Shown piece after piece: positions 16,201-53,445 of a stretch of DNA of 64,000 bases (the stretch's first letter is position 1; each line of letters opens with the position of its first letter). The notes under the pieces are model-generated. The model saw nothing but the letters and a program-made list of their open reading frames with translations, did not search any database and was not told the DNA's origin. The stretch comes from a virus: positions 32,001-96,000 of IMG/VR virus record IMGVR_UViG_3300030202_003282, one strand, 5' to 3'. The translations under genes were made by a program, and so were the position numbers.

Positions 16201-19200
16201 TTGAAGCAAGTAATCAAGGTGATTTTATTGGACTACCTGTAATTAAATCTGTAGTTAAAAATGAAGATGGTGAAACAGCTATTAGTGAAGAAGCATTAAA
16301 TAAATTTGTAAATGAATTAGAAAACGAATATAATAGAATTAAACGTGAGTCAAATACAGATACAGCAACTGAGGATCTTATAGTAGGATATAATGCCCGT
16401 GAAGCAAATGGTACAATTATACCGGATGAATCAGGTAGAGCATTTAAATTATCTAATACCGGAAATTTAGTTTCACCTAAAAAAGCTAGAAGTATAGATA
16501 GAAGTAGATCTGTAGATGAAATATATGTAGCTCCAGAACAAGCAGAGTTATTATATGATGAAAAAAATCCAACCAATTTAATAATTAGAACACCAGCTAC
16601 TGCAATTAAATTAGGAATACGTAATGGAGAAACTGCTACAGTTGACATAACTAAAAAAGGTAATAAAAAAACACAAGATGAAATAGAAAAATTTACATTA
16701 AGAAGTAGAGGTAAAATAACAGTTGATGAAACTAATATTGATTCTATTATTAAAGCATTTGGAAGTTCTGTAAGTACTACAGAAGTAAAAGATTGGTTTG
16801 ATTTAAAAATAGGTGATAAAAAATGGTGGGTTCAAAACTATAAAATTTTACAATTTTTACAAGGTAAGAAAGCAATGGTTGCTTATGATATTACTAAGGG
16901 AGAAACAGCACCGGTTGATACTCAATCAACACAACCAACTAGTGATGTTGAAACTTATAAAGGTCTTGTTGATATCAAAAACTTAAAAGATAATGAAGAT
17001 ACTGCATTTGGATCTAATCAATTTGGATTTCATGGTGGTGGTACGGCAGGAATACTTTATGCAAATGATCCAAGAGCTTACAAAAAACAAGAGATTGAAG
17101 GCAAAGGTCTTAGAGTAGAAGTAGGTAAAGCTAGAGGATTTCAAACGGGTATAGAAGGTTCATCTTATGCATTACAAACTGTAACTGATTGGAAACTTAA
17201 AATGAATGATCCTAAAAGACAAGTTTCTAAATCTGAAATTACAAGTCAGATAAAAGACATGTATGATTACTATAGAAAAAACTCTGATAGAAAAGTATAT
17301 GTACTTTATACAACAGGTGGTAAAAACTTAAACGGGTATAGTTCTTTAGAGATGGCAAAAATGTTTGCATCTGCAGGTCCAATACCGTCTAATGTTGTTT
17401 TCAATGAAGACTTAATAGCTTTAGTAGACACCGCTTCTCAACCAATAGAACAAACTAGTGAGGTTGAAGCAGAAGAAGGTAGTGAAGCAATTCAACAAAC
17501 TAAATTATCAGAATCTCAGATTTTTGAAGATTTAAAAACTAAATTAGAAGAAAAAGCTAAAGCAGGAAGATCATTTAAACAAGCTCTTAATGAAATACCA
17601 GGTATTGATCAAAATATACTTAAGAGTTTAATGGAAGAAAGATTGATGGAGGAGTTTCAAGATTTTAGAATTACACTAGATGAAATTAATGCAACTAATT
17701 CTATATCCTCTAAGATTTTAGATGGCTTCTTTAATGAGAATAATAAAGTTGGACCTCTTGAAAATGATGCAATGAATGCATTAAATTTAAGAACAGAAGA
17801 CCCTGATTTTAACTTAATGCAAATTTATTTTAATGATTGGCTTAATTCAAAATCCTTTAATGATGTTATATTAGGAGATCAAGCAATGTCATTAAAAGAT
17901 GCTGTAGAAAAAATTAAAAGAGCTAAAGCTAATAATGCAGCTGGATATAGTGCACAAACAGATATATATAATGAAGATATAGATATACTACATCCTGTTG
18001 AAAATATTTCTTTGTTTACTATAACAGATCCTAAATACAAACAATTGTTTGATTTTGGAAAAGAAGGAGAAGGAGATAAAGCTGATGCTCAGATGTGGAT
18101 GACAATTAAAGCATTTCAATATATGTGGTTTGGTTTTGGTAAATTAAATGCAAAACAAAATGCCATTATACAAAAATTAAAGAAAGGTGAAAAATTAACT
18201 TCTGAAGATATATTTGGTAATCCAGAAACAGGAGCTGAAGGTTTAAAATCATTTAATGCATTTATAAATTCTAAAAAACTAGTATATGCAGATGGAAATA
18301 CTTTCTTAAAAATGTCAGCATTTGTTCTTACTAAACAATTAACATCTAGAAAAAATTCACAAGGACAGTGGGTTGCTAAAGAAAATAGAAAAGAGCTGCA
18401 TAGTCTTAGAGAAAACTTAGAATCTTTTGAAGAAAGAGAATGGAATGAAAATGGTAATGGAACATTAGCAATTGCTACACCAATGTCAGCTAGCAAAATG
18501 TTTAAGTCAAGTGTACTTAATGAAGAAAAGTTATTTTCAAGTTCAGAAAATTTAGCTGTAGATCAATCTACAACACTTAGTGCAAAATGGATGAGACTTC
18601 AAATGATAAATCCATCTGGTAAAGTAACTATTACTGATCCTACACAAATGAAAAGTTTAGTTACTAGTGAACAAAATGATGCAACAGAAGTTTGGATTAA
18701 TGGTGAAAAAACTGATTTAGGAACTATAAGAAAAGCTTATCAAAAATCTACTTCAAATAGAGCTCAGTTAAAATTTATTAATCAAAGAAATTTATTACTT
18801 GATTTTAATGTAGAAACTGCAATGCGGGAATTAGAAACAAGTAAAATAGAAGGAGATTTTACAGTAGATTTACATTCATTTTTAGAATATGCAATAGAAG
18901 GATTAGAATCTTCTCAATCATCTGCAAGTATAATAGAGTATTTTAGACAAGATGCGGATGGACAATCAAGAAATTTAAATAACCCTATTACAATAAATAA
19001 ATTTGAACAATTATTTTTATCATATTTTAGTAAGCAAGTATTTAGAGAAAAAATTCCAGGACATAAAGTTTCTTTACTTTCTGGAAAGGGATTTAAAGTA
19101 TATAGAAAAGTATTAAGTGTTGATGAAAATGGTCAACCAGAAAGATCTGAAATAATAAGAGATGATCAATGGGAAGCAATGTCTGAAAATGAAAGACCAG

Positions 19201-22200
19201 CTCTTTTTAAAACAGAATATGATGATGTAAAAAATAAAACTTTTGTAGGATTAGAGCAAGCATTAAAAAGTAATATAAAAGGTGGAGTTGTTGTTTTAGA
19301 TGAACTTAAATTTAATGTAAAAGAGTTTGATGAAAATGGTAATGAAACTGGACAAAGATATGCTGAATATATAATGCCTCCTCATTTTAAATCAATAATG
19401 GATAAAATTATTGCAACAGGTGGAGAAACAATTACAGCTTCTGAAATTCAAAAGAAATGGAAAACTTGGGCTAATACAAAATCTTATTCTCCTAAAGCTG
19501 ATGATTATATAGTAAGATCAAAAATAGAAGGATTTGATGCAAATAGATCTAAAAAAGAATATGCTGTTGCATTTGGTTATGCAACAACAACAAACAAAAA
19601 AGGAGACATTGTATTTTTATCAAAAAATGGTAAAGGTCTTGCTAATATTCCAGAAACTGTTGCTAAAGCATTTGGTGTACGTATTCCATCACAAGATATG
19701 CATTCATCTATTAATTTAAAATTAGTTGATTTTATGCCTGCATATTATGGTTCAACTGCTGTATTTCCGGATTCATTAATTGAAGTATCTGGTGCGGATT
19801 TTGATATTGATGCTCTATACATGCAGATAAAAGACTTTTATGAAGATGGGAATTCTTTTAAATCTTACGGTAGTGCAACTACTAAAATAGGAAAGTATAG
19901 AGAATATATTGACTATCAAATGAAAGATGCTTATAAAGGAGGATCTTCATTAGATGCAGCAAGAAAAAAATATTTAGCAAAAGGAGTTAACCGTAATACT
20001 TCATTAACGGATAAACAAAAAGCTAAAGCTAAAGAAGAAGGTTTGAGTGATGATGTTATAGGAGCATTAATGGTGTTAGGATTACCTATAACTCAAAAAC
20101 AATATGAAACTTATAAAGCAGAGCGTTCTTATACAGTTGGAAAAGGAGAAAATAAAATAGAGTTTGAACAAGAACCATATGCAGCTCCTATAAATAATGA
20201 TGTGTTAGATCAAAAATTTGCATTGTTAGGAAATGAAGCAATGACACTTACAAAAGATGGAAGACAAGTTCCTATTGCATATGAATCAGCTGTATTAGAT
20301 CCATTACTAGAAGAATGGGATTGGATTCAAGAAAACTTACCAGAATTAGCAGAATTAACACAAGAAGATGATGTAGATGTAGATAATTTAAGCGGTAAAT
20401 TAAAAGCATGGACAAACAATAAAGAAGGTGCAAGAGGAATTGGTGCTGCAGTATTACCAAATGTTATTCTTAATTTACTTAAAGAAGCCCGTGTAAAATA
20501 TAGAAGTATTAAAGTTGATGGTAGAGAAACATATCCTCAAATAAGATATAATGGAGTAACCTTTAATGAATTTGGTACAGAAATAGAAATTGATCCAATA
20601 ACTAAAAAAGAAAAGGTTGGTGGAGAAAGAACTCAATTTGTTATATCTGCACTTATTACAGCAATGACTGATAATGCTAAAGAAAGATTAGCTGCAAAAT
20701 TAGGATTAAACAAAGATGCATTAGCAACTGTTGTTAATCTTACTGCATTAGGTGTTCCAATAAGAACATCAATTTTATTAATTAATAACCCAATGATAAA
20801 AAGATTTTATTGGGAAAATTCAAATAAAGAAAATCCAGAAGATGCTGGAATTTTTAAAAGAGTTAAAGATATGTTAACTGGACCTGGCGGATTAGAAGAC
20901 GTGTATTTAAGTTTATATGGAAAAGATCTTGCTACTGATGCTAAACTAGAAGTAACTGATGCAAAGTTATCAGAAGCAATTAAAGAAATGAATGACTTTA
21001 ATTCAGATGAAAGAAAGTCAGGTACTATGTTTAGTTCAAAAAACGCTGAATCAAGAAGGTATAGTAAATCAATGTTTCAAAGAGATTATAAAATTTTAAA
21101 ACAATGGCAAAGTGCTCATAGACTTAAAAAGTTTACAGGTGAGCTTCAAAGTGTAGTTAATCTTGCAAAAACATTAGGTCAAAACTTTCAAAATGTTCAA
21201 GATAGAAATAATGCTGTTGAAAATTTAGGATTGTTTTATGAAGGACCGTATTCTTCTTTAACAATGTCAAATATAACTAATGAACCAATTGGTTTACCAT
21301 TAGAAAATGGATGGCAAAAAATATTTAAAGGTGATGATCAAACATTCCATGGAAACAATCTTAATATGGATAGACAATTGCAAGATCTTTTACCTAAAAT
21401 CTTTTTATCTAAAACTGAAAAATTCCAAGATATATTAAATGTTACACTTAGTAATATGAATCAAAGAGTTTTACAAGATAGATATAAGGGTTCAAAATTA
21501 TATGATAAAATAAGTACAGATCTTATTTCATATGTAACAATTAAAGCTTATATCCAAGGACTAAGAAAAGCGGGTAAACCTGTAAGTTTATCATCATTGA
21601 ATAATGGGCTTATCTATAAAGAGAATGGAAGCCCGGTTCAAATAGATGATGTAATAAATAGACTTAGAAAGGTATATGAAGGTAAAGAAAATTATTTTTT
21701 AAATAGATTTATTTTTAATGATTCACAATATAAACCTACAAATACTACTGGTATTAATCAGTTAAAATCTACTACCTGGACAAAAGTATCACCAGCACAA
21801 GTAGAAAAAATTCAAAATGGATTTGCAGATATATTTAGTAATATAGATACTAGATCAGATGCAATACATATAGCTCATTATTTAATGGTTAAAGATGGAT
21901 TGCAGTTTAAAAGCGGAAGTATTTTATCAGCAATGGCTCCTTTTATTTATGATCTTTATTTAGATTATGTTGATATAGCACATGAAGCATTTCAAACAGA
22001 AGAAGATAATAAAGCATTTGCAGATATATTTGGTATGAGCCATAAAGAAATGATAGGAGACTTTACATTAGGTTATCTTAAAGCTAACCCAATAAACTGG
22101 ATGTTAAATACTGTTGGTAATAGTGGAAGAAAAAATGGAAGAAATATAGGTGTATATGCACCAGGTGAAAACAAATATCAAATTGGATCATTTAAAATTG

Positions 22201-23635: not shown

Positions 23636-26600
23636 ATGGCTAAATGTATAAATAGAAGTGCTCCAGAATATGCTCCTTTATTAAAGAAGTATAAGTCTGT
23701 AATTACAGTAGATAGTATTATAAATAAATGGCAAGATTTTAATTTTGGTACAGATTTATTTCCTACAGTAGCACAAGCGGAAGAATATCTTAATAATAAA
23801 AAAGCAGTATATTCATTAAAACAAAGAGAATTTGATGAAGCGTTAGTTGCTAATTTAAGAAAATTAGGTTTAGTGCAAAGAAGAAATGTAAATGGTCAAT
23901 TAACTATTTATGTGCAGAATACGCCTAAAGAAGGAGCCCCTTATATATTTAGAGCAGAAAAAGATCAGCTGTTAAATAATGAGCAATCTAAAAAAGTTGC
24001 AGATGAAAATTTTAATAAAGTTTTAAAATATCTGCAAGTTCACGGAATGCCTTTAGATTATTTTATTCCTACGTATACAAAAAGAACTATAAGATTAGAT
24101 GTTAATCCTTCTGCAGTTAAACCAAAAGATATAATAGAAATAGCTAAAAAAGCTACTAGAAAAATTTCTCCTAATACTACTGCAATATTAGAGCATTTAG
24201 GACAAATGTTTCCTCAATTAAATATTAATGTAGTTAATAAAGAACAAGCACGTAGATATTGGGAATCATTACCACAAGCAATAAGAGGGTTAAATAAAAA
24301 TAAATTTGACCAGGTAAACTCATTTTACTATAGAGGAAATGTAATATTAATTGAAGGAAGAATTAATAGTGAAACAGCAATAGAAGAAGTATTACACCCA
24401 TTTATGGATGCAGTATATGCACAAAATAAAAGTTTATTTGAAGGTTTATTGTCAGAAGCTAAAGAAAACTTTCCTGAATTAGTTGTTAAAATTGAAAATG
24501 CATATAAAACTAGTGATGATGTATTTTTTGATCAAACTCAAATAGATAAAGAAATAGTAACACAAGCTTTATCTAGACATTTTAATAGAGAATATGAAAA
24601 TAATCCAACAGAAAGTTGGACAACAATGATAAAAGATTTGTTTGATTTTTTTATGACAATTTTAAAAGATCTACATAAATATATAAGTGGTAAAAATTTA
24701 AAAGGAGTTAGAGTTGAATCTATAGTTGGCTTTGCAAAATTATCTGATATTGCTAAACTTTTAAATACTTCAAATATTTCATTTGATTTATCATTAGCAA
24801 ATAAAGATAAAATAAATAAAGTTCAGTATTCTTTATCTCCAGGTAAAATGGCTATTATAAATGCTGCAATAGCACAAGGAAATCCGCTTCAACAAAAAAT
24901 TGTAGCACAATTATTTCATACACCTGGAAATGTACCTATGGATAAAGATAGTGCTTTTACAGATGAAGATGGTAATTATGATTTTTTAACTGCTACAGGA
25001 GTACAGGATGGTGAAACTATAATAGTATTAAATGCAAAAGATCATGTATACTATAATGTAAAGACGGGAGAAGCATATACATCAGCTACTACTGTTATAA
25101 AAGGTACAATGCCTGAATCAGTGAGAAAAGATAAAAGAATAGCTCTTGAATTAGGAAATGATTTTGATGCAATTACAGACGGTATAGCTGCAGGATTAAC
25201 TTTAGATCAAATTAAAGATAATATGACAATATTAGATCCTGAAGTAATTAGAGATGCATATAATCAAATATTTGCAACAGTTAATAATATTGAAATGGAA
25301 CCTACAATGGTGGGTAAACCAGAAAGAAATATTGTTTTACCACAAGTAATTTTATATGATGAAAAGACAAAAACTGCTGGTACAGTAGATTTAATGGTTA
25401 TTACACCAACAGGACAAATAAGAATTATAGATTTAAAAACTAGTAAAAATTCAATTAACAAAATTGATAGATTTTCTAAAAGTCCTGCATATAGTACAAA
25501 TAGTTTTCCTTTAGGAGAAGATTCTAAATTATTATATGAAACTGAAGATGGTCAATATTTATTAGATTCAAAAGGTAATAAAATTAGAAAAACAGAATTA
25601 TCTGGAAAAAGAAAAGGTTTGCCTTTACGTATAGAAATGACTACAAAGCAACAACATGATATGCAAGTTAATCTTTATAGAAGAATGGCTGAAAACATGG
25701 GGTTAGAAATTGAGCATGGTAGGTTAGGTACAATGACTTATCATATTCATGTTCCTTGGACTACAAAAGATTTTAATAAAGATGGTAAATATACAGGAAC
25801 ATTTAGATTAGAAGGTTTCCAAGTTCAACAAGATCAACAAAATGAACTTTATATTGATCAATTAGTACCTGAAGATAGAAATAGTTGGAGTGCTGAAAAA
25901 ATGCAAAGAACGGTTGAGCAAGATGAAAATTCTCCTTTAAAGGATAATTATTTAAATGATAACGAAGCATTGCCAGAAGATATTACTGATGCAAATGGGC
26001 TTACAGAATACAATACTATTTTTACTGCATTGCAAGATTTTAAACAAGGATTGTTAGATAGAAAAACTGCATTATTACAATTAAGATCAGCAATTACATT
26101 AGACAAAACAAGAGCTGAAGCTGTTGAAATGATTGATGATAAAATAGCTGCTATTGAAGTTGCAACTTTAATAGGTGATGGTAAAAAAATGGCAGCTGAA
26201 TATACTAGACTTATGACATCTTCTATTAAAGAAATGGATAAGTTTATAGAATACATGAATAATCCTAAAAATTATAATTCTCAAAAGTATATTAATTATG
26301 CTTTAAATTTTGACAAGTTTATTGCAACATATTCTGGATTAAGAAATATAAAAAAATCTGGAGATTTGAATAATACTCAGATGAAATTATTATTGACTTT
26401 AGAAGATAAACTTAAAGAAATTGGTGGTTATCAAAAATCAGGTGGAGAAGTAGTAGAAGGACTTGTAGATAAAGCTATTTCAAATTATGTTAGAACATAT
26501 GTTAAAGAAAATAGTAACAGAGAAGATTTAGATGATGCTACATTAGATAGTATAATGAAGTTAGGTGAAGACATAGGCATGTTTGAATTTGGAACTTATG

Positions 26601-29521
26601 ATATATCTACATCAAGAGATACCCTTCTTGCATTGATGGATAAGGTTTTTAAAGCTAAACAACAAGAAGTATTAGATAAAATTTCTAATAGAGAATATAG
26701 AATAAGACAATCTGCTTCAACTTTAGCTAAATTATCTTCAGGAAATGATCAAAATGAATTCTATAATTATATGTTAGAATTTGATGAAGAAGGTGTTCCA
26801 ACAGGAATGGTTGTTCAGAAAATTGGAAAGCAATATTGGAATAAAAAGAAAACTTTTTATGATAAACTATCTGATGCTAGTGGTGTGCCATTACAATACA
26901 GACATATTGATAGTATAGAAGAAGCTAAAAAAACAAAACAAGGAAGAGAAGATATTGCATATAACATAGCATTACATAAAAGAAAAATGGAGTTTGCTGT
27001 TTTTATGAGAGCTGAATATACGCAAGATGGTACTTTAAGAGATGGTAGATATCACAGGTATAATGATGAATTTATTAAAGCACGTTTAATACATGAAACT
27101 TATGTACAAGTAGGAGATAATCATGGTCATTGGGAACAAAAGAAAGGTATGACTGATGCTGCATATCAAAAATATTTAGTTAAGTATTATGATCAAAAAG
27201 ATAATGTAACTAAATCTGAATACATTGGTGGTGAATTTACCGGTAAAGTATATGAAGTACCAACTAGATTTTATGTTAAAAAAGATTATGTAATTATAAA
27301 TGAAACTGCAAAAAATGATAAGGGTGGATTAGAGTCTATGGTTAGTGAAAAATGGGATAAAATAATGAATCCTACTGATGCACTAGGAGAAGCTCAAAAA
27401 GATTTTTATAACACTTACATGGAGATTTACAATGACATGTTGGAAAAATTACCTATGACAACTAGAGATAAGATGTTAGGTAAAATGCCTTTAATTAAAA
27501 ATACATTTTTTGAAAGCTTAAAAGATAAACCAAATGCAGTGGCTAACTTATGGACTAAAATGACCAGAGGTACTAAAGATTTCTTTACAAGTACTGCTCA
27601 TAGTAAAAGAGTTGTTTTAGATGAACAAGGTAATCTTACAGATCAATTGCCAATATTTTATGTTGGTTCTCCAAGAACAGAAGAACAATTGAAAAAAATT
27701 CTTGATGATATAGAAGCTTTAGAAATAAGATATAAAGAAGGAGGACCTAATGCAATAAGTTTTGAAGAGTATAAAAAACAGTTACAAGTTCTTAAAGGAG
27801 AAGAAGCTAAAATAAGACAAGTTCCTACAAGATCAGAAATAAGTAAAGATATGGCTGATAGTTTATTAAGATTTACTGCAATGGCTGAAAATTATGAAGT
27901 CATGGGACAAGCAGAAGATACTATAAATGCCATGTTAAAAATAATAGAAAAAAGAACTTATACAACATCTGAGAATGTTGTTACAGCATATATAAAAGGT
28001 AAAAAAGAACAAGTAGGAGAAGTTAAAGGTTCAGATTCAAATGTTTATAAAAGAGCTAAAAAATGGATGAACATGGTTTATTATAACAATGATTCAATGA
28101 GCAAATCTGTGGCAGATAAAATGGTATCTAAAGTAATAAGATATTCTTCTTTATCTTATGTTGCTTGGAATCCATTTGGTAATATAAACAACTATGTAAT
28201 AGCAAGATTAAATAATGGTATAGAAGTAGCAGGACAAAGATTTTTTTCTGCTAAATCATATGCAAGAGCAACGGCAGAATTTAATAAAAGAGTTATGCCA
28301 GACTTAGTAAGAAAAACAGCTTTTGCTGGTGGACAATTTGCATCAGGTCAATATGATCAATATGAGGCACAATCAAAATATGAAGCTTTTGTTGAATTAT
28401 TTAGAATGATGGATAATACTGCTGATATCCGTGAATCTGGTTATAATGGAAAAAAAGGTTTGTTTTCTAAATTTATGGATTTAGGTTATTTACTACAAGA
28501 TGGTGCAGAATATAATGTTCAAACTAAAGTAGGAATGGCCATGATTATGGATGTTCAAGTTAGAAAAAGTAAAGAGGGCAATGGAGGAGAAACATTGAGT
28601 TTATGGGATGCTATGGAATTTAACTCAGTTACTCATAAATTAACTTTAAAAGAAGGTTTTGATGAAGTAGCAGAAAGAAATAGTGCTGATCCTAAAAGTG
28701 GAGAAAGAAATTGGACAAAATATGATGATCAGTGGAGATATCAATATAGAAATAAAATACGTGAAGTAAACAAACAAATACACGGTAACTATGCTCATGA
28801 AGATAGAATGGTAATTCAATCACATTGGGGTGGTGAATTAATAGCTCAATTTCACAAGTGGGTTGTCCCTGCTATTAAGGCAAGATATAGAAAAGAATAT
28901 TTTGATGAAAATGTAGGTTACTTAGAAGGTAGATATAGAAGTTTATTTCAATTAACAAAATGGGCTTGGAAAAATAAAGCCAATATAAAAAATCTTAAAG
29001 AACAATTTAAACAAGATTTTGGTGAAGGAAATAGAGCTAAAATGAAAGTTTTAAATCTTTATAGAGCAGCTGGTGAAACAGCTATAATGTTTACTACACT
29101 TGCAGTAGCAAGTTTATTAAAAGGTTTATTTGAAGATGATGATGATGACTCACCAGGAATGAGAAGGCTTAAAAATGCTATGGTGTATCAAGCAGATAGA
29201 GCATATAAAGAATTAATACAATTTGCTTGGTTTACACCAGATGGAGTAAAACAAATATGGCAGATGGTAGGATCTCCTATAGCTTCTACAAGAACATTAG
29301 GAGAATTAACAGAAGCTTTTGTTGCAACTGCAGATTATGCATATTATGGATTAACTCAACCACCAGAAGAATTTTATAAAAATTCAGATATTTATTATCA
29401 AAGAAGGCCACGTAAAGGTCAGCTTAAATTAGCAAAGGAATGGAAAGATGTAGTTCCAATAATATATGGTATTCAAAGATGGGCTGATTTTGAAAATCAA
29501 AAAGATTTTTATATTAAATAA
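23636..29521 (+). CDS. Large virion/ejection protein with degenerate zincin-like motif and PD-(D/E)xK nuclease-like domain
   Basis: 1961 aa. EEVLHP (24383) is followed by a downstream KEIVTQAL. GTVDLMV...IIDLKTS...QVNLY (25379-25680) fits a PD-(D/E)xK pattern. It follows the vRNAP gene. Confidence 0.7.
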   Translation: MAKCINRSAPEYAPLLKKYKSVITVDSIINKWQDFNFGTDLFPTVAQAEEYLNNKKAVYSLKQREFDEALVANLRKLGLVQRRNVNGQLTIYVQNTPKEGAPYIFRAEKDQLLNNEQSKKVADENFNKVLKYLQVHGMPLDYFIPTYTKRTIRLDVNPSAVKPKDIIEIAKKATRKISPNTTAILEHLGQMFPQLNINVVNKEQARRYWESLPQAIRGLNKNKFDQVNSFYYRGNVILIEGRINSETAIEEVLHPFMDAVYAQNKSLFEGLLSEAKENFPELVVKIENAYKTSDDVFFDQTQIDKEIVTQALSRHFNREYENNPTESWTTMIKDLFDFFMTILKDLHKYISGKNLKGVRVESIVGFAKLSDIAKLLNTSNISFDLSLANKDKINKVQYSLSPGKMAIINAAIAQGNPLQQKIVAQLFHTPGNVPMDKDSAFTDEDGNYDFLTATGVQDGETIIVLNAKDHVYYNVKTGEAYTSATTVIKGTMPESVRKDKRIALELGNDFDAITDGIAAGLTLDQIKDNMTILDPEVIRDAYNQIFATVNNIEMEPTMVGKPERNIVLPQVILYDEKTKTAGTVDLMVITPTGQIRIIDLKTSKNSINKIDRFSKSPAYSTNSFPLGEDSKLLYETEDGQYLLDSKGNKIRKTELSGKRKGLPLRIEMTTKQQHDMQVNLYRRMAENMGLEIEHGRLGTMTYHIHVPWTTKDFNKDGKYTGTFRLEGFQVQQDQQNELYIDQLVPEDRNSWSAEKMQRTVEQDENSPLKDNYLNDNEALPEDITDANGLTEYNTIFTALQDFKQGLLDRKTALLQLRSAITLDKTRAEAVEMIDDKIAAIEVATLIGDGKKMAAEYTRLMTSSIKEMDKFIEYMNNPKNYNSQKYINYALNFDKFIATYSGLRNIKKSGDLNNTQMKLLLTLEDKLKEIGGYQKSGGEVVEGLVDKAISNYVRTYVKENSNREDLDDATLDSIMKLGEDIGMFEFGTYDISTSRDTLLALMDKVFKAKQQEVLDKISNREYRIRQSASTLAKLSSGNDQNEFYNYMLEFDEEGVPTGMVVQKIGKQYWNKKKTFYDKLSDASGVPLQYRHIDSIEEAKKTKQGREDIAYNIALHKRKMEFAVFMRAEYTQDGTLRDGRYHRYNDEFIKARLIHETYVQVGDNHGHWEQKKGMTDAAYQKYLVKYYDQKDNVTKSEYIGGEFTGKVYEVPTRFYVKKDYVIINETAKNDKGGLESMVSEKWDKIMNPTDALGEAQKDFYNTYMEIYNDMLEKLPMTTRDKMLGKMPLIKNTFFESLKDKPNAVANLWTKMTRGTKDFFTSTAHSKRVVLDEQGNLTDQLPIFYVGSPRTEEQLKKILDDIEALEIRYKEGGPNAISFEEYKKQLQVLKGEEAKIRQVPTRSEISKDMADSLLRFTAMAENYEVMGQAEDTINAMLKIIEKRTYTTSENVVTAYIKGKKEQVGEVKGSDSNVYKRAKKWMNMVYYNNDSMSKSVADKMVSKVIRYSSLSYVAWNPFGNINNYVIARLNNGIEVAGQRFFSAKSYARATAEFNKRVMPDLVRKTAFAGGQFASGQYDQYEAQSKYEAFVELFRMMDNTADIRESGYNGKKGLFSKFMDLGYLLQDGAEYNVQTKVGMAMIMDVQVRKSKEGNGGETLSLWDAMEFNSVTHKLTLKEGFDEVAERNSADPKSGERNWTKYDDQWRYQYRNKIREVNKQIHGNYAHEDRMVIQSHWGGELIAQFHKWVVPAIKARYRKEYFDENVGYLEGRYRSLFQLTKWAWKNKANIKNLKEQFKQDFGEGNRAKMKVLNLYRAAGETAIMFTTLAVASLLKGLFEDDDDDSPGMRRLKNAMVYQADRAYKELIQFAWFTPDGVKQIWQMVGSPIASTRTLGELTEAFVATADYAYYGLTQPPEEFYKNSDIYYQRRPRKGQLKLAKEWKDVVPIIYGIQRWADFENQKDFYIK

Positions 29522-44837: not shown

Positions 44838-46091
44838 TTAAAATGGTAAATCATCAGCAGTATCAAATATTAAATTATCTTCTACATCTGTATACACGCT
44901 TACATTTTTTAATGACCATTTTCCATTTTGTGCTTCTAATTTTTCTTTCCATTCTGGTTTTAATTTAAAAGCACTTGTATCTAGATCAAAAATAGAATTT
45001 TTACCAAAACCTGCATTTCCACTTATAACATTAGAAAACATTCTAGTTACTGTTTCTTTAAATGCAAATTCAGTTAATGCTTCTTCTTGATCTAATTTCT
45101 TTATAAATGATTCAAAACCATGAGCATTTTGACCACCATAAAGACCATCTGCAAAAGATTTCATTCTTGTTCTTAATGATTTTACATTAACGGTATTCCA
45201 ATTTTTAGCATATCTTAAATTATCATTATTATAATAAAATAATAACGCTAAATATGGAATTGATTTTTCAATGTTACAATTAGACATTAATTCTAAAGCT
45301 AATGTGCAGTTTTCTGCATCATCTGCTTCTATCATTTTTAAACATTGATAATAATCATCTTCTGTAAGAACATGTGAATCTTCTGTTGTAAATTTATTTA
45401 AATGACTATCTAGCACTAATGTAGTGGAATTTAATAATGGTTCTAATGTAGACCATTCTTCAGCTTTAACATACCAAGGAGTCTTTCTATTGATGTTTTT
45501 CCATTTTAAAGAATTAGTGTCTTTATAAGGACTTAATGAATTTTCTAATATATCTTTATTTGAACTAGATTGATTATAAGAATATCCACATGTAATAGCA
45601 ATTCTAGAATCATTTTCTAAAATATTAAACCATTCAACAATATTTTGCCATGTTGCTTCCATAAACCTATTACTTTTTTTAAAATCTTGAAATACACTTT
45701 TAAGTTCTTCTTTTGATAAAAGAGTGCCTTGGTATTGTTGATCTAATGTAGAGTCTAAATACTTATAAGATATTACTGAATAATCAGCTTTATCTTGATT
45801 TCTAGTAACAGATAAATTATATTTTTCTTTTAAAACATCTACCTTTTGTCTAGGTAAATCTAATTTAGGAAATCTATAAATAGTTGCATCCTGTAAATCA
45901 TTTGAATCAATATCTTGTATTGAAAAATTATTTACTAATTGTTTTTTTTGTGATTCTCTGATGCTATATCCTTCAGATGCAAATACTATCATACCAAGAT
46001 ATTCTGTTGTAATAGCTTCTGGATTTAATCTATTATTTACATTAAATTTAGGATAAAAGTTAAAATTTAAATTATATAGTTTATGTCTCAT
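44838..46091 (-). CDS. BRCT-like domain protein with helical domain and SSB-type DDLPF C-terminus
   Basis: ATIYRFPKLDLPRQKVDVLKEKYNLSVTRNQDKADYSVI has a BRCT-like pattern. The protein ends ADDLPF and looks paralogous to 46081-47157. Confidence 0.55.
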   Translation of the reverse strand: MRHKLYNLNFNFYPKFNVNNRLNPEAITTEYLGMIVFASEGYSIRESQKKQLVNNFSIQDIDSNDLQDATIYRFPKLDLPRQKVDVLKEKYNLSVTRNQDKADYSVISYKYLDSTLDQQYQGTLLSKEELKSVFQDFKKSNRFMEATWQNIVEWFNILENDSRIAITCGYSYNQSSSNKDILENSLSPYKDTNSLKWKNINRKTPWYVKAEEWSTLEPLLNSTTLVLDSHLNKFTTEDSHVLTEDDYYQCLKMIEADDAENCTLALELMSNCNIEKSIPYLALLFYYNNDNLRYAKNWNTVNVKSLRTRMKSFADGLYGGQNAHGFESFIKKLDQEEALTEFAFKETVTRMFSNVISGNAGFGKNSIFDLDTSAFKLKPEWKEKLEAQNGKWSLKNVSVYTDVEDNLIFDTADDLPF

Positions 46092-47157
46092 TTTTAATTG
46101 TTTTTTTTAAATATTTACGATACTCTGGTTTAACACTCACTTTAAATACATAAAGTTCTCTATTACAAATAGATATTTCTTTTCTTACTAAAGGTTCAAG
46201 ATGGCAAAAACTTTCATGAGTTAATTGTTCTTTTTCTTCTAAGTACACAATCATGTCTTCTGCACTTTTATATCTAAGATTATCCCAATCAACATTTTCT
46301 AACCAATATTGCACATCTTTATTTCTATTAAATTTGTGCATATAGTTATCCATTTTAGAAATAAATTCCCAAAATAAATGAGGAACTCCTGTTGGATCAA
46401 TGGTTGGAATTAATTTACCAGCTAATTCAATGTCTTCATTATTATAATTATTACATTGACTATAAATTAAATCTCCAAGCTCTTCAGTAAATGGAGTTCT
46501 AGTAGCAGAAGATAATAGTAAATCATCCATTGCTATTGGAGTAATTAAACCTGTGTCAATTTTGTATGCAAGATTTATTGCCATTCCAGTAAGACACCAA
46601 ACATCATAACAACTCTCTCCTGCTGTATGATCATGACGTCTACCAAATTCTTCTAGTTTTTCATCCCAAATTACAGAACCATTATCTAAAATCCATTTAT
46701 TAGCTTGATTTATAAAACTATAATTATTAGAATTATCAAATTCATTAACAGATTCATAATTCCATAATTTAAAACTCATATGGCTATTTAATATTCTTTC
46801 ACCATTATTTAAAGTATGACTAGTATTATCATCATGAACAATAACCATATCAGCTAAAGTATAGTCATTTGTTATAGTTATTTTATGCTCTTTACATGCA
46901 GCTTTTACTCTATCTAAAGAGACAGGAGACTTGCTGTAAACAAAAGCTTTTTTACATGAACTAAAGTTTTTTGTTGGAGCTGCAGTTAATATATTATTTA
47001 TTTTATCATATGTTGTTTCAGATTCTGATACTAACACTTTACCAAACTCATATCCTCCGGATAAAGGAACTCCCATAAAAGAGAGCTCCTCATCTGTTCC
47101 AAAGAAATGGTCCAGTGCATCTTGATCAAAATCTTGATATACTGTTTTTTTTGCCAT
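46081..47157 (-). CDS. BRCT-like domain protein
   Basis: KAFVYSKSPVSLDRVKAACKEHKITITNDYTLADMVIV has a BRCT-like pattern. Confidence 0.55.
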   Translation of the reverse strand: MAKKTVYQDFDQDALDHFFGTDEELSFMGVPLSGGYEFGKVLVSESETTYDKINNILTAAPTKNFSSCKKAFVYSKSPVSLDRVKAACKEHKITITNDYTLADMVIVHDDNTSHTLNNGERILNSHMSFKLWNYESVNEFDNSNNYSFINQANKWILDNGSVIWDEKLEEFGRRHDHTAGESCYDVWCLTGMAINLAYKIDTGLITPIAMDDLLLSSATRTPFTEELGDLIYSQCNNYNNEDIELAGKLIPTIDPTGVPHLFWEFISKMDNYMHKFNRNKDVQYWLENVDWDNLRYKSAEDMIVYLEEKEQLTHESFCHLEPLVRKEISICNRELYVFKVSVKPEYRKYLKKTIKNET

Positions 47158-47158
47158 T

Positions 47159-48424
47159 TTATTTCATTGTCATTTTAATAATCTCAGGCTTCATCATAAG
47201 TTTATTAAACTTTTGTTTGTTACCATTGAATATTGTTCTTACTACTAAATACTTAAGATCATCAGTAAAATAATCTTTAGTACATAAGGTTTCAAGTCTA
47301 TCTGTTATCTTCTGACTAATAGTATTTTCTTTAGAATATACCACTGAGAAGTTAGCAAGTCTTGTTGCCAATGTTGATGCAATATCTGCACGATAAGCAT
47401 CATCTTTTCCAATACAACCAGTTAACTCACCAAGAATATATTGCTCATTATCATGAGTTAATAAATCTTTAGGTGTTACTAGTTTATCTAGTTTATTGTT
47501 AATAAAAGTTGTAAACATAGATGCAAATTCATCACCTACAGAACCTTCACCAATCATTTGAATTAGTGGTAACTCATCTTCAAATTTTTCAATAGAACTT
47601 ATAGAGTTAAAAAAGCTTGTAATAGATCTTGCATTTGTTTCTTGAGTTACAAGTTCAGGGTGTAATAACAAAAAGTTAATACATCTTGAATCAATACCTG
47701 ATTCTTCTGCCCAACGAGCCCATACTTCAACATCAAATTTAAGATTTGCAGAAATAAATCTAGTTTTTTGTGCAGAATCTATTGAGTTAACCATATAATC
47801 TCCATTGTCTGGATTTGCAGTTAAAACAATATGCCAATCTTGAGGTAAAGACCAAGAAATATAAGTTTGTCTGTCCACTAATTCCATAACGGCTTGAACA
47901 AATCTCATATCTGCACGGTTCCAATCATCTAAGATTAACATGCCACCTTTTTTTACATCAGCAATCCAGTTAGGAGCACAATAAGACATTCTATTCTTAC
48001 CTGTTACTTTCCAACCTTGTTTTAAATATTCTTCAACAGCAAGTTCATCAACCCACTGACCAACTTTTTTAGTTATAGTTGCAGTTGCAACTTGAGCAGA
48101 AGCTGCTGCTTTTTGTGCTGCAGTATAATTAAGATCATCTATCTTTTTAGATGGAACTTTCTTTTCTTTATACATTTGAAATTGTCTAACAGGAAATCCT
48201 ACAAGATCTCCTAACTCTTCAATTTGAGCTAAATTTAATTTTACACAATCTAGATTGTTTTCTTTTGCAATTTCCATTACAGTAGATGTTTTACCAATTC
48301 CTGATTCACCTACTACTTCAATAGCTACAGGAAGTTTATTTTCTTCTTGTAAAAATCTATTATTAGTTATTATGTGGTTAATAAACCCTTTTAATTCATC
48401 AATGTTTAAATTTACTTGTGCCAT
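47159..48424 (-). CDS. MoxR-like AAA+ ATPase
   Basis: Walker A GESGIGKT, GDLVGFP, Walker B LILDDWNRA, LTANP and DSAQKTRF (Arg finger). Confidence 0.85.
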   Translation of the reverse strand: MAQVNLNIDELKGFINHIITNNRFLQEENKLPVAIEVVGESGIGKTSTVMEIAKENNLDCVKLNLAQIEELGDLVGFPVRQFQMYKEKKVPSKKIDDLNYTAAQKAAASAQVATATITKKVGQWVDELAVEEYLKQGWKVTGKNRMSYCAPNWIADVKKGGMLILDDWNRADMRFVQAVMELVDRQTYISWSLPQDWHIVLTANPDNGDYMVNSIDSAQKTRFISANLKFDVEVWARWAEESGIDSRCINFLLLHPELVTQETNARSITSFFNSISSIEKFEDELPLIQMIGEGSVGDEFASMFTTFINNKLDKLVTPKDLLTHDNEQYILGELTGCIGKDDAYRADIASTLATRLANFSVVYSKENTISQKITDRLETLCTKDYFTDDLKYLVVRTIFNGNKQKFNKLMMKPEIIKMTMK

Positions 48425-48432
48425 AATTTTTA

Positions 48433-49599
48433 TTAGTTTAATTGTATTTTAAATCCGGGTAATTCTTCATTTATTCCACAGTCAGAACTATGAACCCATA
48501 ACGTATTATTTGGACAGTTGTTAGGACTTGGAGCCTCTCCATCTGTAAAATATATAAGTGCAGTATATGCACGTTTATTATCATTATAATGATCTATAAC
48601 AGGTTGAAATGATGTACCACCTCTACCGTGTATTTCCCAATCTTGTTTTGGATTAAATTCTTTTATTCCTCTAAAAGTAGAATCACATTGTGCAACAGTA
48701 ATCTTATGACCTGTTTTATGCATATGTGTTAATTCACTCCAAAATTCTTCTAGTTCTTTAGAACTAACTGATCCAGATGTATCTACACCTACAAGAATAT
48801 GATTTTTAAATTTAACTTTAAGACCAGGATTTTCACTGTATCTTTTATTAAATTTTCTACGCATTTTTCTTGTATAGCTTACTGTAGAATTTCCAACAAA
48901 TCTTCTAAGATATCCTCTCCAATCAAATTTTGGAGGTTCAACATGTCTTAGTCTTTGAATTAAATCTGCAAGTTCACCTGGAATGTTACCACATCTTTTT
49001 TCAGTTGTTTCAGCAGTCTCTTTAATTTGATGTTCAATTTGTTTTTCAACTAACTTTTTATCTGCTTCATTTAATTCATCAAATTCAGCCCAAGTTTTAT
49101 GATCATATTGACTATCACCATCCATTTGTCCTAACAAAGATTCTAATGAAGGACAATTTCCACTTTGTTTAGCTTGTTCCAGCAATTCATAATACTTTTT
49201 AGTACCAGCTTTAACAGGAAGATTTAATTCAGGAAATGTATCTAAAGTTAATCCACCATCAGGTAAATCATTTTTATTTATATATTGATTTATTTCTAAA
49301 TCAGCAGCTATATTAAATAATTTATGATCAGAATATAAATCTCTTAACGTTAAATGACCAAATGAAACATGAAGTAATTCATGCTTTAAAAGACCAACTT
49401 GTTGTCTTATATTTAATTCTTGAAAAAAATCTGGATTAATAGCTAATTGAATACCTATTCCTTTTTTACTCACACCTGCAGTAGGTATGTCTTTTCTATA
49501 ACTTTTATTTAATCCAATAAGAAAAAGTCCGTAAAAGGGCTCTTCTAAGATTAAAGTTTTAACGGTTTTTGCAACCTTTTCACTTATTATTATACTCAT
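48433..49599 (-). CDS. Metallopeptidase-VWA protein (DUF2201-like)
   Basis: HELLH and NIAADLEIN, plus VWA MIDAS elements VDTSGS, GRGGT and FTDG. Confidence 0.85.
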   Translation of the reverse strand: MSIIISEKVAKTVKTLILEEPFYGLFLIGLNKSYRKDIPTAGVSKKGIGIQLAINPDFFQELNIRQQVGLLKHELLHVSFGHLTLRDLYSDHKLFNIAADLEINQYINKNDLPDGGLTLDTFPELNLPVKAGTKKYYELLEQAKQSGNCPSLESLLGQMDGDSQYDHKTWAEFDELNEADKKLVEKQIEHQIKETAETTEKRCGNIPGELADLIQRLRHVEPPKFDWRGYLRRFVGNSTVSYTRKMRRKFNKRYSENPGLKVKFKNHILVGVDTSGSVSSKELEEFWSELTHMHKTGHKITVAQCDSTFRGIKEFNPKQDWEIHGRGGTSFQPVIDHYNDNKRAYTALIYFTDGEAPSPNNCPNNTLWVHSSDCGINEELPGFKIQLN

Positions 49600-50032
49600 G
49601 ATTATAAATTGATTTAAATTTTGAAAAATAACGTTCTATTGCTTGTTTTTCAGGAGTAATTTTATTCATTTGATATACAATAATATCCATAATAGAAGAT
49701 TTAAACTCTTCATTTTTTCTTTTAAATAAAAATTTTGTAATGGATAATATATCTTCCCAAGTATAACTACCATGACGGTAATTCCAAGGCCTTGGGATAT
49801 TATGACCTGTATCATGGAGTAAACTAAACTCTTTCATAAGTTTATTATACTCAGGAAATTTTTTCATATATACAGCTCTACGCTTATAAAATAATGTTTT
49901 AATAAATAACATATGATACGTAACATCTAATTTAAAATTTTTAATATTAGAAAAAGCTACTTCCATATCTTCATCAGTTCCATTTAACATTTTTTCTAAT
50001 ACTATAAACTCTTCTAAACTTAATATTTTCAT
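49580..50032 (-). CDS. Hypothetical protein with shared helical motif
   Basis: 150 aa; LEKMLNGTDEDMEVAF. Confidence 0.6.
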   Translation of the reverse strand: MKILSLEEFIVLEKMLNGTDEDMEVAFSNIKNFKLDVTYHMLFIKTLFYKRRAVYMKKFPEYNKLMKEFSLLHDTGHNIPRPWNYRHGSYTWEDILSITKFLFKRKNEEFKSSIMDIIVYQMNKITPEKQAIERYFSKFKSIYNHEYNNK

Positions 50033-50033
50033 A

Positions 50034-50501
50034 TTAATCCCAGTTTATGTTTGATTTTACATTAAGAAACGGAAACATATTATTAATATCACCTATAAGA
50101 TTTTTTTGGACAACATAATTAAAAAATTCTATTAAAAGAGGATCTTTATTTTCTTTAATCCATTCATATAATTGATCATATTCATATCCTGCTCTATTAT
50201 CCCAAGTACTTATTTTTAAACGGTTTACAAAACTTTGATAAGCAGCCGGATTACAATTTGATATTAATTGCATTGTTAATATAGTATAGGGAGTTAAATA
50301 AGTTTCTGTTCCCCAATCATAAAAATGTAAAGATGTGTCTTCTATTATTTTATAAGCTATTTCTTTATCATCTCTATTTGGAGAATTAATTAATTTTATT
50401 AATCCTTTTATATCAGACAAAGTTTTAATAGACTCTACAAAAGATTCTTCATTTATTGATTTTAAAACTTTCATTCCGTTATTAGTTAATATTTGATTCA
50501 T
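50034..50501 (-). CDS. Hypothetical protein with shared helical motif
   Basis: 155 aa; LIKLINSPNRDDKEIAY. Confidence 0.6.
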   Translation of the reverse strand: MNQILTNNGMKVLKSINEESFVESIKTLSDIKGLIKLINSPNRDDKEIAYKIIEDTSLHFYDWGTETYLTPYTILTMQLISNCNPAAYQSFVNRLKISTWDNRAGYEYDQLYEWIKENKDPLLIEFFNYVVQKNLIGDINNMFPFLNVKSNINWD

Positions 50502-50848
50502 TAGTCTTCAATTTTTAAAGTTCTAAGCATCCACGTTGGATGTTTTTTTTCAGTCATATTAATAATCCATTCTTTTGCAGAAGGTATATAATTATTACAA
50601 TCTTCTTTTACATGTTGTTCACCAACATACCGTGTATACACAGTTTTACCATCAGAATTAGTAAAATGTTCTCCAAATGTTTTTTCACATTCAAAAATTC
50701 CTTCACTATGATGTCTATACATTCTATGATAAGAATTACCAATCCAAGATTTAGTTTCATCAAACCAATTATGAATATGAATATAATCTGTTTCCAAACC
50801 ACCCCATTTTCTTACAGATGATTTAGCATGTTTTAAAGGATGAGCCAT
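50501..50848 (-). CDS. DUF6915-like His-rich protein
   Basis: MAHPLKHAKSS..KWGG...IHNWFD...HR..RHHSEGI...GEQHVKED. Confidence 0.7.
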   Translation of the reverse strand: MAHPLKHAKSSVRKWGGLETDYIHIHNWFDETKSWIGNSYHRMYRHHSEGIFECEKTFGEHFTNSDGKTVYTRYVGEQHVKEDCNNYIPSAKEWIINMTEKKHPTWMLRTLKIED

Positions 50849-51225
50849 TAAATATTATTTAATAAAGTTCCGGCATCATCATATTCTTCATATGTTCTTT
50901 GATTATAATTAATTATATAAGATAAATTACTTAATTGTATATCAATTGATCCCCAACCACCTTCATTGTTAACCCAATCACCTATTCTATTTACATAGTT
51001 TTCAAAAAAATGATATGCTAATTCTTCAATGTCATCAGTTCTAATAAAAGGTTCACAACCTTTATAGTCAGATATATAATTACCGTTAGGATCTAAATAT
51101 TCTATTTCATGAATAGAACCGTCATCCCCTCCTCCATCAAAATGAGCTCTAATTGTATGTACTCCTTTATTTAATAGGGCTAGTTTTGTTTTTAATATTA
51201 ATTGTTTTCTTTTTCCTTTTTGCAT
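50848..51225 (-). CDS. DUF6878-like protein
   Basis: FDGGGDDGSI...WVNNEGGWG, adjacent to the DUF6915-like gene. Confidence 0.65.
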   Translation of the reverse strand: MQKGKRKQLILKTKLALLNKGVHTIRAHFDGGGDDGSIHEIEYLDPNGNYISDYKGCEPFIRTDDIEELAYHFFENYVNRIGDWVNNEGGWGSIDIQLSNLSYIINYNQRTYEEYDDAGTLLNNI

Positions 51226-52767: not shown

Positions 52768-53445
52768 TTATAAATCAAAGTCAGATGCACTACCATTTTG
52801 ACTTACTGGTTCAAAATTAGTAGCTGCAGGTGCTGAAGCTTTCTTTTTTAAAGGAATAATGTGATTATCTTTATCAAAAGTTAAAAGTCTAGAGTTTTCA
52901 ATATCTAATGCTTCCATTGGAATACCATCTTTAGACATTCTAGGTAAAAATAAATCTTGGTTAGTATAACCTTCTTTATTTTCCCATTCTTTTCCACCAA
53001 CACACATATTAAACCATCCACTAGCAGAAAAAAGATCATTACAAGATGTCATAAACTCTTCAATAGTATTTGCTTGTACTTTATCAAGTTCATCTCTTTT
53101 ACCTAAAACTTCAGAAAGATATACCATACCTTTCATCACTTCATTATCTCTACTAATTTCTCTTCCAGATGGAAGTGTAGCATCTTTATATGGATAAGGA
53201 GAAAATCTCACTCTTCCTACTTGACCTTGGTATCTTGGACCATTTGGCTCATTTACATTCAATAAAAATCCTTCAAACTCTCCACCTACAGGCTTTGTTT
53301 CAACATTTAATAAAATATTATAAGCTTCTGCATCATATGGTGTTTGATCAAAACTAACTGAATTGATTCTTACAACGTGATTTCCAGCACTAATTACTGG
53401 TTTAGTTTTTCCGCTTCCAACGGACATGTCTTTAGTGTTTAACAT
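52768..53445 (-). CDS. Putative single-stranded DNA-binding protein
   Basis: It lies between the Sak4-like ATPase and primase, has a beta-rich body and ends in a flexible acidic-aromatic tail (SDFDL). Confidence 0.6.
   Translation of the reverse strand: MLNTKDMSVGSGKTKPVISAGNHVVRINSVSFDQTPYDAEAYNILLNVETKPVGGEFEGFLLNVNEPNGPRYQGQVGRVRFSPYPYKDATLPSGREISRDNEVMKGMVYLSEVLGKRDELDKVQANTIEEFMTSCNDLFSASGWFNMCVGGKEWENKEGYTNQDLFLPRMSKDGIPMEALDIENSRLLTFDKDNHIIPLKKKASAPAATNFEPVSQNGSASDFDL

Follow-up and report, generated by a model that had tools for sequence, protein, structure and literature searches.

A 64,000-nt stretch of DNA (the window; bases 32001–96000 of the 116,753-bp IMG/VR virus record IMGVR_UViG_3300030202_003282, rated complete) carries a five-gene module in which a AAA+ ATPase (g421) and a protein with a zincin-like HExxH domain and a VWA domain (g388) are encoded amid genes for three proteins, g150, g358 and g417, that share a helical domain (genes are named after the number of amino acids (aa) in their products). 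We read the locus as a clade-specific elaboration of the gp24/gp25-type pair of phage N4, in which the helical-domain proteins would be adaptor or client subunits coupling the pair to DNA-metabolism complexes. This reading is tentative, at just under an even chance. The first-pass annotation, made from the letters alone, had described eight tightly coupled genes, and eight minus-strand open reading frames (ORFs) are indeed present with the order and coordinates it gave (g125, g115, g155, g150, g388, g421, g358, g417; Table 1), the junctions ranging from a 20-nt overlap to an 8-nt gap. The conserved module comprises five of them (g150, the VWA gene, the AAA gene, a g358-type gene and g417) and is seen only in one marine phage clade.

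The relationship among the four unannotated proteins, g155, g150, g358 and g417, is not visible in single sequences (all-versus-all BLASTP of the eight proteins gave no E below 0.05) but emerges from family profiles. With hhalign, g155 aligned to g150 at a probability of 95% (E 3.5e-8, 113 columns) and g150 to residues 241–360 of g417 at 89% (E 2.4e-6, 117 columns). The pair g358 and g417 reached 52% (E 1.4e-4), over nearly the full lengths on realignment, and two weaker matches, g155 to g358 (21%, E 1.1e-3, 36 columns) and g150 to g358 (12%, E 2.4e-3, 42 columns), fell at the equivalent place. All 16 control pairs, which involved g388, g421, g115 or g125, stayed at ≤5% with E ≥0.008. A second profile comparison gave 67% for g358 and g417 (E 5.1e-5, 274 columns), 88% for g150 and g417 and 14% for g150 and g358. 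The columns on which three pairwise alignments agree are exactly the segments that the first-pass annotation had quoted as alignable, in the register it had proposed; it had also named profile–profile comparison as a possible refutation, and the segments came out of that comparison related.

A deeper g150 profile, built from 140 database representatives, scored g155 at 29.3 bits, g417 orthologues at up to 27.8 and g358 orthologues at up to 20.1, with at best 5.1 for the VWA family and 2.1 for the AAA family. Run against the 4075 ORFs of 80 related loci (described below) at E ≤0.01, it retrieved only the proteins of the g150 slot, nine g358 orthologues and six g417 orthologues, matching residues 243–362 of the latter. 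Intermediate forms connect the families further: in two divergent lineages the g358 slot is taken by short proteins that match the g358, g417 and g150 hidden Markov models (HMMs) together. One ORF, L093:8870-9355 (related loci are numbered with the prefix L), matches the g358 HMM (31.3 bits, positions 214–343), the g417 HMM (18.7 bits) and the g150 HMM (10.9 bits), and the g417-like protein adjoining it matches the N-terminal part of the g358 HMM. Judged by these profiles, the four unannotated proteins are paralogous through a common helical domain.

The shared core of this domain is a two-helix unit, h-x-x-h-x-x-h-h-x-[GSA]-x-x-[ED]-[DN]-x-x-h-[AG]-x-x-h-h-x-[ND] (h, hydrophobic), and homology spans ∼115 residues in g150, g155 and g417. 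The acidic residue in the turn of the motif (g150 position 21) is E or D in 61/61 g150, 3/3 g155, 50/54 g417 and 18/19 g358 sequences, the g358 count covering the 19 of 60 members above the domain threshold. The helical domain, present as three to four paralogues, is a previously undescribed family and has no Pfam model match here. No recurrent TPR or HEAT repeat family of Pfam was found (at most 2/59 members of the g417 family and 2/61 of the g150 family match), and Foldseek of the helical part gave recurring weak matches to Fis1, which has a TPR fold, at probabilities of 0.2–0.38. A second string, L[IM]SNCN, had also been put forward as common to g155 and g417. It was rejected as a common motif: residues 79–84 of g155 lie ∼27 residues past the equivalent of g417 268–273, and since the two are out of register in the domain alignment the match is probably due to chance.

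Conservation of the neighbourhood was followed with an IMG/VR scan using g421, which gave at least 533 relatives; 80 loci with AAA identities of 80–97% were kept. Both g388 and g421 are present in 80/80 of these, g358 in 78/80 (both absences are contig ends) and g417 in 73/80 (all seven absences are contig ends). In all 79 loci that reach the slot, an ORF of 95–157 aa ends at the start of the VWA gene, and its 61 unique sequences all belong to the g150 family by HMM. g150 is a stand-alone copy of the helical domain that the whole clade possesses, and its gene invariably sits directly upstream of the VWA gene. The five-gene order is also kept in a ∼102-kb sublineage (L093–L095) and in L102 and L103, where the AAA protein is only 49% identical; in the divergent lineages the g358 slot is filled by a ∼160-aa protein consisting of the helical domain alone. 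Mean column identity falls in a gradient from the AAA protein (89%) and the VWA protein (80%) to g358 (57%), g417 (31%) and g150 (23%). The enzymatic core is strongly conserved and the helical-domain proteins diverge quickly.

A search of 1.84 billion proteins with the g150 family profile found 242 cluster representatives at E ≤1e-3, and the 150 listed are all 50–163 aa long; no longer protein was found at E ≤0.01, which is weak evidence. D22 and K45 are invariant in the family, and no Pfam family recurs in it (at most 3/61 members). The g358 family search returned 521 proteins, and the 120 listed all come from the same marine lineage.

Several loci depart from the compact arrangement. In L102:3632-5987 two ORFs make up the VWA gene and are followed by an additional one of 259 aa; in L103:7223-7777 an HNH-like, Cys-rich ORF of 185 aa separates the AAA gene from that of the short helical protein. 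These insertions may be homing endonucleases or introns. In L019, L020, L028, L029, L070, L071 and L079 some 400–600 nt separate the VWA and AAA genes (1–24 nt in the others).

The remaining three genes of the original eight fall outside the module. The helical domain of g155 occupies residues 24–155, and g155 was found in only 2/80 related loci (L001 and L002, by BLASTP); it is a recent tandem duplicate of g150. By BLASTP, DUF6878 is present in 36/80 loci and DUF6915 in 38/80, DUF6878 lying directly upstream of DUF6915 in 35 of the 36. DUF6915 homologues also occur in 127 cultured phage records from unrelated hosts, and in the three examined (Tsamsa, phiM12 and Daubenski) no AAA, VWA, helical-domain or DUF6878 gene was found within 3 kb. 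The DUF6878/DUF6915 pair is an unrelated, optional cassette. With g155 duplicated recently and the DUF pair independent and optional, the unit is one of five genes, and the eight-gene system of the first-pass annotation was given up. In L088 (Tsamsa), L090 (Daubenski) and L089 (phiM12) the DUF6915 homologues lie near RNA ligase, ‘RNA-binding protein’, tRNA clusters, NAD-salvage genes or metallophosphoesterase, neighbours that hint at a role related to RNA or nucleotides and separate from the AAA/VWA pair.

The enzymatic assignments made at first sight hold on the strength of Pfam, PHROGs, the Midasin match and invariant motifs. g388 matches DUF2201_N (73.4 bits, cut-off 23.2, E 3.1e-20), DUF2201 (56.1 bits, cut-off 26.4, E 5.1e-15) and phrog_1314 (E 7.9e-65); its family profile found no match among PDB sequences. 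The HExxH motif (H73, E74, H77) and E102 are invariant in 61/61 clade sequences, which is compatible with an active peptidase, and so are the residues of the MIDAS site DxSxS...T...D (D273, S275, S277, T329, D353). g421 matches AAA_5 just below the cut-off (21.4 bits, cut-off 22) and an ATPase family of PHROGs (phrog_1297, E 7.4e-34). The best solved-structure match of its family profile among PDB sequences is Midasin (E 4.8e-7), and its AD45-P1 homologue is annotated as COG0714, MoxR-like. In its Walker A motif, GESGIGKT, residues G39, G42, G44, K45 and T46 are invariant (63/63). The Walker B motif LILDDW (residues 163–170) departs from the hhhhDE consensus, with D166–D167 in 63/63 sequences and in the distant L103; homologues have DE (BpSp, AD45-P1, Pokken, LUZ7) or EE (MTATph1). 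The DD is a derived feature, the catalytic glutamate being replaced by aspartate across the clade.

From their sequences, g421 and g388 belong to a type of pair known as gp24 and gp25 in phage N4. tblastn with g388 reached 458 cultured-phage records, including N4-like phages, Alteromonas AD45 phages, a Moorella phage and a Bacillus jumbo phage, and in LUZ7 the ‘N4 gp25-like protein’ that it hits (E 6e-11) adjoins an ‘N4 gp24-like protein’. The g388 HMM matches the VWA gene in 6/6 distant phage loci and the g421 HMM the neighbouring AAA gene in 5/6, among them the gp24-like proteins of LUZ7 and Pokken; near the VWA gene of VBP47 there was no g421 HMM match at E ≤0.1. tblastn with g421 against cultured phages gave one partial match alone, in Listeria phage LPJP1. 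The roseophage paper PMC2784036 lists gp24 (AAA) and gp25 (vWFA) with the function ‘Unknown’, and a passage of Iyer et al. (2021; PMC7824862) describes a jumbo-phage MoxR-vWA chaperone–cochaperone pair with a fused metallopeptidase. Because the core pair is of the N4 gp24/gp25 type, the locus is not a new system, and its designation as an undescribed one was abandoned. Judging by titles and abstracts, no paper addressing the function of DUF2201 turned up.

The locus resembles N4 gp24/gp25 of the Schitoviridae in having homologous proteins whose genes are adjacent, or nearly so, and lie near replication and nucleotide-metabolism genes. It differs in that the VWA gene precedes the AAA gene, that Walker B reads DD instead of DE, and that three to four helical-domain paralogues flank the pair (the 3/3 N4-like loci examined are without them). 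With the jumbo-phage pair (PMC7824862, in the same passage; also BpSp) it shares a AAA+ ATPase and a VWA protein with an N-terminal HExxH peptidase domain; unlike that pair, for which virion assembly was proposed, it sits in a replication array and has the extra paralogues.

A working analogy is Midasin (Rea1), which likewise has an AAA_5 ring and a MIDAS domain and is the best structure match of the g421 family. There an acidic residue of the client is bound by the MIDAS site, and the force comes from the AAA ring. In the same vein, the first-pass annotation had proposed a putative acidic docking helix common to the adaptors or substrates. Midasin is one giant eukaryotic polypeptide that acts in ribosome assembly; the components here are two small proteins, one of them with an added zincin domain. 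In bacteria, MoxR-class ATPases work with VWA adaptors in CbbQ/CbbO, NorQ/NorD and RavA/ViaA; the zincin fusion is not a known feature of these systems. The Bat operon of Bacteroides combines MoxR and VWA proteins with TPR (helical-repeat) companion proteins; for the helical domain here, no sequence relation to TPR/HEAT Pfam models was found.

The two large paralogues carry more than the helical domain. AlphaFold2 models of g358 (predicted local distance difference test score, pLDDT, 85.3; predicted template modelling score, pTM, 0.73) and g417 (pLDDT 84.1, pTM 0.73) have parallel secondary structure in the N-terminal region (strand 70–73, helix 81–90 or 81–91, strand 104–107), and the predicted helical domain starts at about residue 225 in g358 and 244 in g417. 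The two are full-length paralogues with parallel predicted topologies. A BRCT-like N-terminal segment in both had been proposed; the homology between the two stands, and for the BRCT identity the evidence stays below threshold. Pfam BRCT (PF00533) occurs as a sub-threshold hit in 11/60 g358 orthologues, the most of any family, with a best E of 0.0083; two inspected hits (13.1 and 15.3 bits against a cut-off of 21.3) cover residues 65–115 and profile positions 7–60 of 78. Among the 59 members of the g417 family, BRCT is not one of the 25 listed of the 33 matched Pfam families. Foldseek gave weak local BRCT matches, to PARP1 (2cok, probability 0.89 for g358), to Sir4 H-BRCT and MCPH1 BRCT for g358 only, and to another PARP1 BRCT structure (2le0) for both models, with a root-mean-square deviation of 2.0–2.1 over 44–49 columns. 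The canonical BRCT domain has a four-stranded parallel sheet and three helices in the order β1-α1-β2-β3-α2-β4-α3; residues 70–139 of g417 are predicted as β-α-β-β-α-β-(extra β)-α, the same order with one extra strand.

Other searches with the two proteins gave little. Their family profiles found no match among PDB sequences, ESM Atlas gave no usable match for either, and megablast of the region and tblastn with g417 and g358 against cultured phages returned nothing useful (a single match at E=4). In BFVD, g417 has four uncharacterized structural relatives at E 4e-10 to 1e-7 (A0A6J5LXR8, A0A8S5QMV2, A0A8S5TKB2 and A0A8S5TL70); a crAss-like virus encodes one of them, and one ‘Podoviridae sp.’ genome another two. 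The crAss001 record gave no match to the VWA or g358 profiles, an empty result that carries little weight.

A feature beyond the first-pass annotation is the tail of g417. [quoted passage not shown] Of the 69 complete g417 orthologues, 16 have a C-terminal [DEN][IL]PF; elsewhere among the 4075 ORFs it does not occur. Within its own genome, g417 is alone among 444 ORFs in having it. The tip is retained at g417 identities of 27–80% while the preceding residues change freely, and eight further orthologues have an acidic stretch followed by a terminal Phe. The tail is thus present in the phage of the window and in about a quarter of its relatives. At E ≤1 the phage genome contains nothing that matches Pfam SSB (OB-fold, PF00436). 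Hence g417 is a tail mimic at most and not an SSB, differing from the latter in having no OB-fold match and in carrying the tip in a minority of orthologues. In the literature, at the level of listings and abstracts, no described non-SSB phage protein with an SSB-type tip turned up.

These data are consistent with a model where the helical-domain proteins act as subunits of an ATPase–VWA remodeller. The large paralogues g358 and g417 would supply the BRCT-like module, and the g417 tail would be an SSB-tail-like handle that couples the machine to replication or repair proteins, of host or phage, that read the SSB tip. Such replication/repair complexes would be the object of ATP-driven remodelling, perhaps accompanied by zincin cleavage.

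A number of points weigh against this model. The association of the helical-domain proteins with g388 and g421 is one that we infer. The gp24/gp25 loci of LUZ7, Pokken, VBP47, AD45-P1, MTATph1 and BpSp contain no relatives of g150, g358 or g417 at E ≤0.1, so that elsewhere the pair works without the helical-domain proteins. The co-occurrence of helical-domain hits with AAA/DUF2201 pairs, on which the first-pass annotation had relied, was found inside one clade with a syntenic array and failed in those 6/6 other loci; because it is confined to such a clade, adjacency may reflect descent and not function. A 555-aa fusion of AAA and helical domain in L102 was discarded as an artefact, since the ORF spans a run of N. 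The profile probability for g358 and g417 is only 52–67%. A Pfam BRCT search of the phage's own genome at E ≤10 found no match, and with all Pfam scores below threshold the BRCT-like unit stays a lead; nor did Foldseek find a PDB match at E ≤1e-3 for either model. The DDLPF-type tail is missing from 53/69 complete g417 orthologues. Finally, ATPase turnover may be atypical, because the Walker B glutamate is replaced by aspartate clade-wide.

The main rival holds that the paralogues and the pair are neighbours only: the paralogues would be replication/recombination accessory or host-hijack proteins independent of the pair, for example recruiting or sequestering SSB-tip readers on their own, and adjacency would be inherited synteny. 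The six lineages whose pairs lack these proteins and the lack of any true fusion (the one candidate being the artefact just described) fit this view, as does the packing of the region, where everything from helicase to polymerase (∼56.2 kb down to 39.8 kb) forms one dense, co-oriented block; because the entire array is packed alike, tight coupling is not special to the eight genes. In distant members synteny extends equally to the upstream genes, L103 for instance also retaining primase, RusA-like and DUF genes. Set against this, wherever a locus extends far enough, paralogues flank the pair on either side, at AAA identities of 49–97%, and the flanking persists through insertions (the HNH-like ORF in L103; VWA–AAA gaps of ∼400 nt in several loci). 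There is moreover a 20-nt overlap between the g150 gene and the start of the VWA gene. On balance we regard the neighbours-only explanation as unlikely, if by no means negligible.

A host-takeover or anti-defence role, close to what the first-pass annotation had suggested, is distinctly improbable. The fast-evolving paralogues would serve as interchangeable specificity adaptors, bringing host proteins of defence or DNA metabolism to the AAA–VWA–zincin machine for unfolding or cleavage. The spread in mean column identity (23–57% in the paralogues versus 80–89% in the enzymes) would suit such adaptors, although fast divergence is also expected of weakly constrained scaffolds. Members of the family have undergone duplication, truncation or re-tailing (g155, the short g358-slot forms, the variable C-termini of g417), and the invariant HExxH and E102 would allow for cleavage. 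The targets remain putative, and no likeness to known anti-defence proteins emerged, in an analysis that did not extend to PADLOC or defence libraries. We give a slim chance to a related idea that joins this role to the tail: the paralogues would be exchangeable adaptors whose BRCT-like module and SSB-tip mimic capture host SSB-tip readers (restart, repair and nuclease enzymes) for remodelling or cleavage. A virion-assembly chaperone that folds or processes structural proteins with the helical proteins as assembly co-factors, as proposed for jumbo-phage and Acidianus two-tailed virus pairs and, in a passage of PMC7824862, for the same MoxR-vWA(metallopeptidase) architecture in group 2.2 jumbo phages, is very improbable here, given that the pair, in this phage as in the N4-like phages examined, lies among replication/nucleotide-metabolism genes and not structural genes, and that the BRCT-like unit and the SSB-tip-like tail point to DNA transactions.

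Returning to the elaborated gp24/gp25-type pair, its interest lies in what the clade adds. The AAA/VWA-peptidase pair is widespread (the 458 cultured-phage records above) and its role elsewhere is only proposed; the conserved motif of two helices, the BRCT-like unit and the SSB-tip-like tail are testable features that could reveal, through binding, the substrates of the pair. Of the locus, the g417 tail and the helical-domain family merit further study. Should the proposed link with the SSB interactome be true, MoxR-VWA remodellers would be connected with replication and repair, and g417 would be an example of a non-SSB protein with an SSB-type tip. If the adaptor-capture idea is true, the locus would represent a novel type of device for phage takeover and would give a first functional handle on a core gene pair of N4-like phages.

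Table 1. Genes, predicted domains and C-terminal tip of the locus (positions are those of the window).
Feature	Position	Strand	Length	Assignment or remark
g125	50848-51225	-	125 aa	DUF6878, 37.2 bits (cut-off 24.3), Pfam E 3.2e-9
g115	50501-50848	-	115 aa	DUF6915, 133.5 bits, Pfam E 3.5e-39
g155	50034-50501	-	155 aa	No Pfam family at E ≤0.1
g150	49580-50032	-	150 aa	Chance-level SarA/Rot match alone (E 0.02, 15.4 bits, cut-off 27)
g388	48433-49599	-	388 aa	DUF2201_N and DUF2201; zincin-like (HExxH) N-domain and VWA/MIDAS, N4 gp25-type
g421	47159-48424	-	421 aa	AAA+ ATPase of the AAA_5/MoxR-Midasin kind, N4 gp24-type
g358	46081-47157	-	358 aa	No Pfam or PHROG family
g358 BRCT-like unit	46807-46965	-	~residues 65-117	In alpha/beta N-region
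g358 C-terminal helical domain	46111-46512	-	~residues 216-349	
g417	44838-46091	-	417 aa	No Pfam or PHROG family
g417 BRCT-like unit	45675-45890	-	~residues 68-139	
g417 helical domain	44922-45377	-	~residues 239-390	
g417 disordered tail	44841-44921	-	residues 391-417	pLDDT below 50
DDLPF-COOH, SSB-C-terminal-tip-like end of g417	44841-44855	-		After predicted disordered tail

The phage is an uncultured marine phage of ∼117 kb, and the locus lies inside its replication–recombination gene array. Upstream of the block are genes for a DnaB-like helicase, an AAA_24 protein, a Toprim primase and a RusA-like resolvase; downstream are an exonuclease VIII-like PD-(D/E)XK nuclease and a DNA polymerase. 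The strongest terminator-like hairpin of the region, which is also the first strong one on the minus strand (42225-42198, minus strand; an 11-bp stem followed by a T run), comes after a 143-aa ORF and is likely to mark the end of the transcription unit that holds the eight genes. Next to the AAA_24 gene lies a 225-aa ORF (52768-53445, minus strand) that matches neither a Pfam nor a PHROG family and ends in an acidic/aromatic stretch, ...SASDFDL. Since the genome gives no Pfam SSB match, this ORF is a candidate for a non-canonical protein of ssDNA binding or annealing.

Near-identical DNA is found in marine metagenomes of several studies. One run of an oligo-dT RNA library holds seven short contigs (150–422 nt) over g417, g358 and g421, though contigs in an RNA library do not show transcription, and two metatranscriptomes from a sample holding the DNA gave no contigs of the region. 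L098–L104 (some of them 114–120 kb) are found in metagenome-assembled genomes (MAGs) labelled Campylobacteraceae, Pseudomonadales, Rickettsiales, Micavibrio, Bathyarchaeia and Flavobacterium, evidently mis-binned phage genomes. The Bacteroidota host of the first-pass annotation gains nothing from these six different labels, and because they conflict no host is assigned.

The window has a G+C content of 26–36%, and no tRNA genes were found in its 64 kb. In its first half, four giant ORFs follow one another on the plus strand: 2-3604 (1200 aa, which may extend beyond the 5′ end of the window), 3667-7263 (1198 aa, no PHROG match), 7287-23621 (5444 aa) and 23636-29521 (1961 aa, with a weak match to an exonuclease PHROG). 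By size alone, they recall the virion RNA polymerase or injected giant proteins of N4-like and crAss-like phages.

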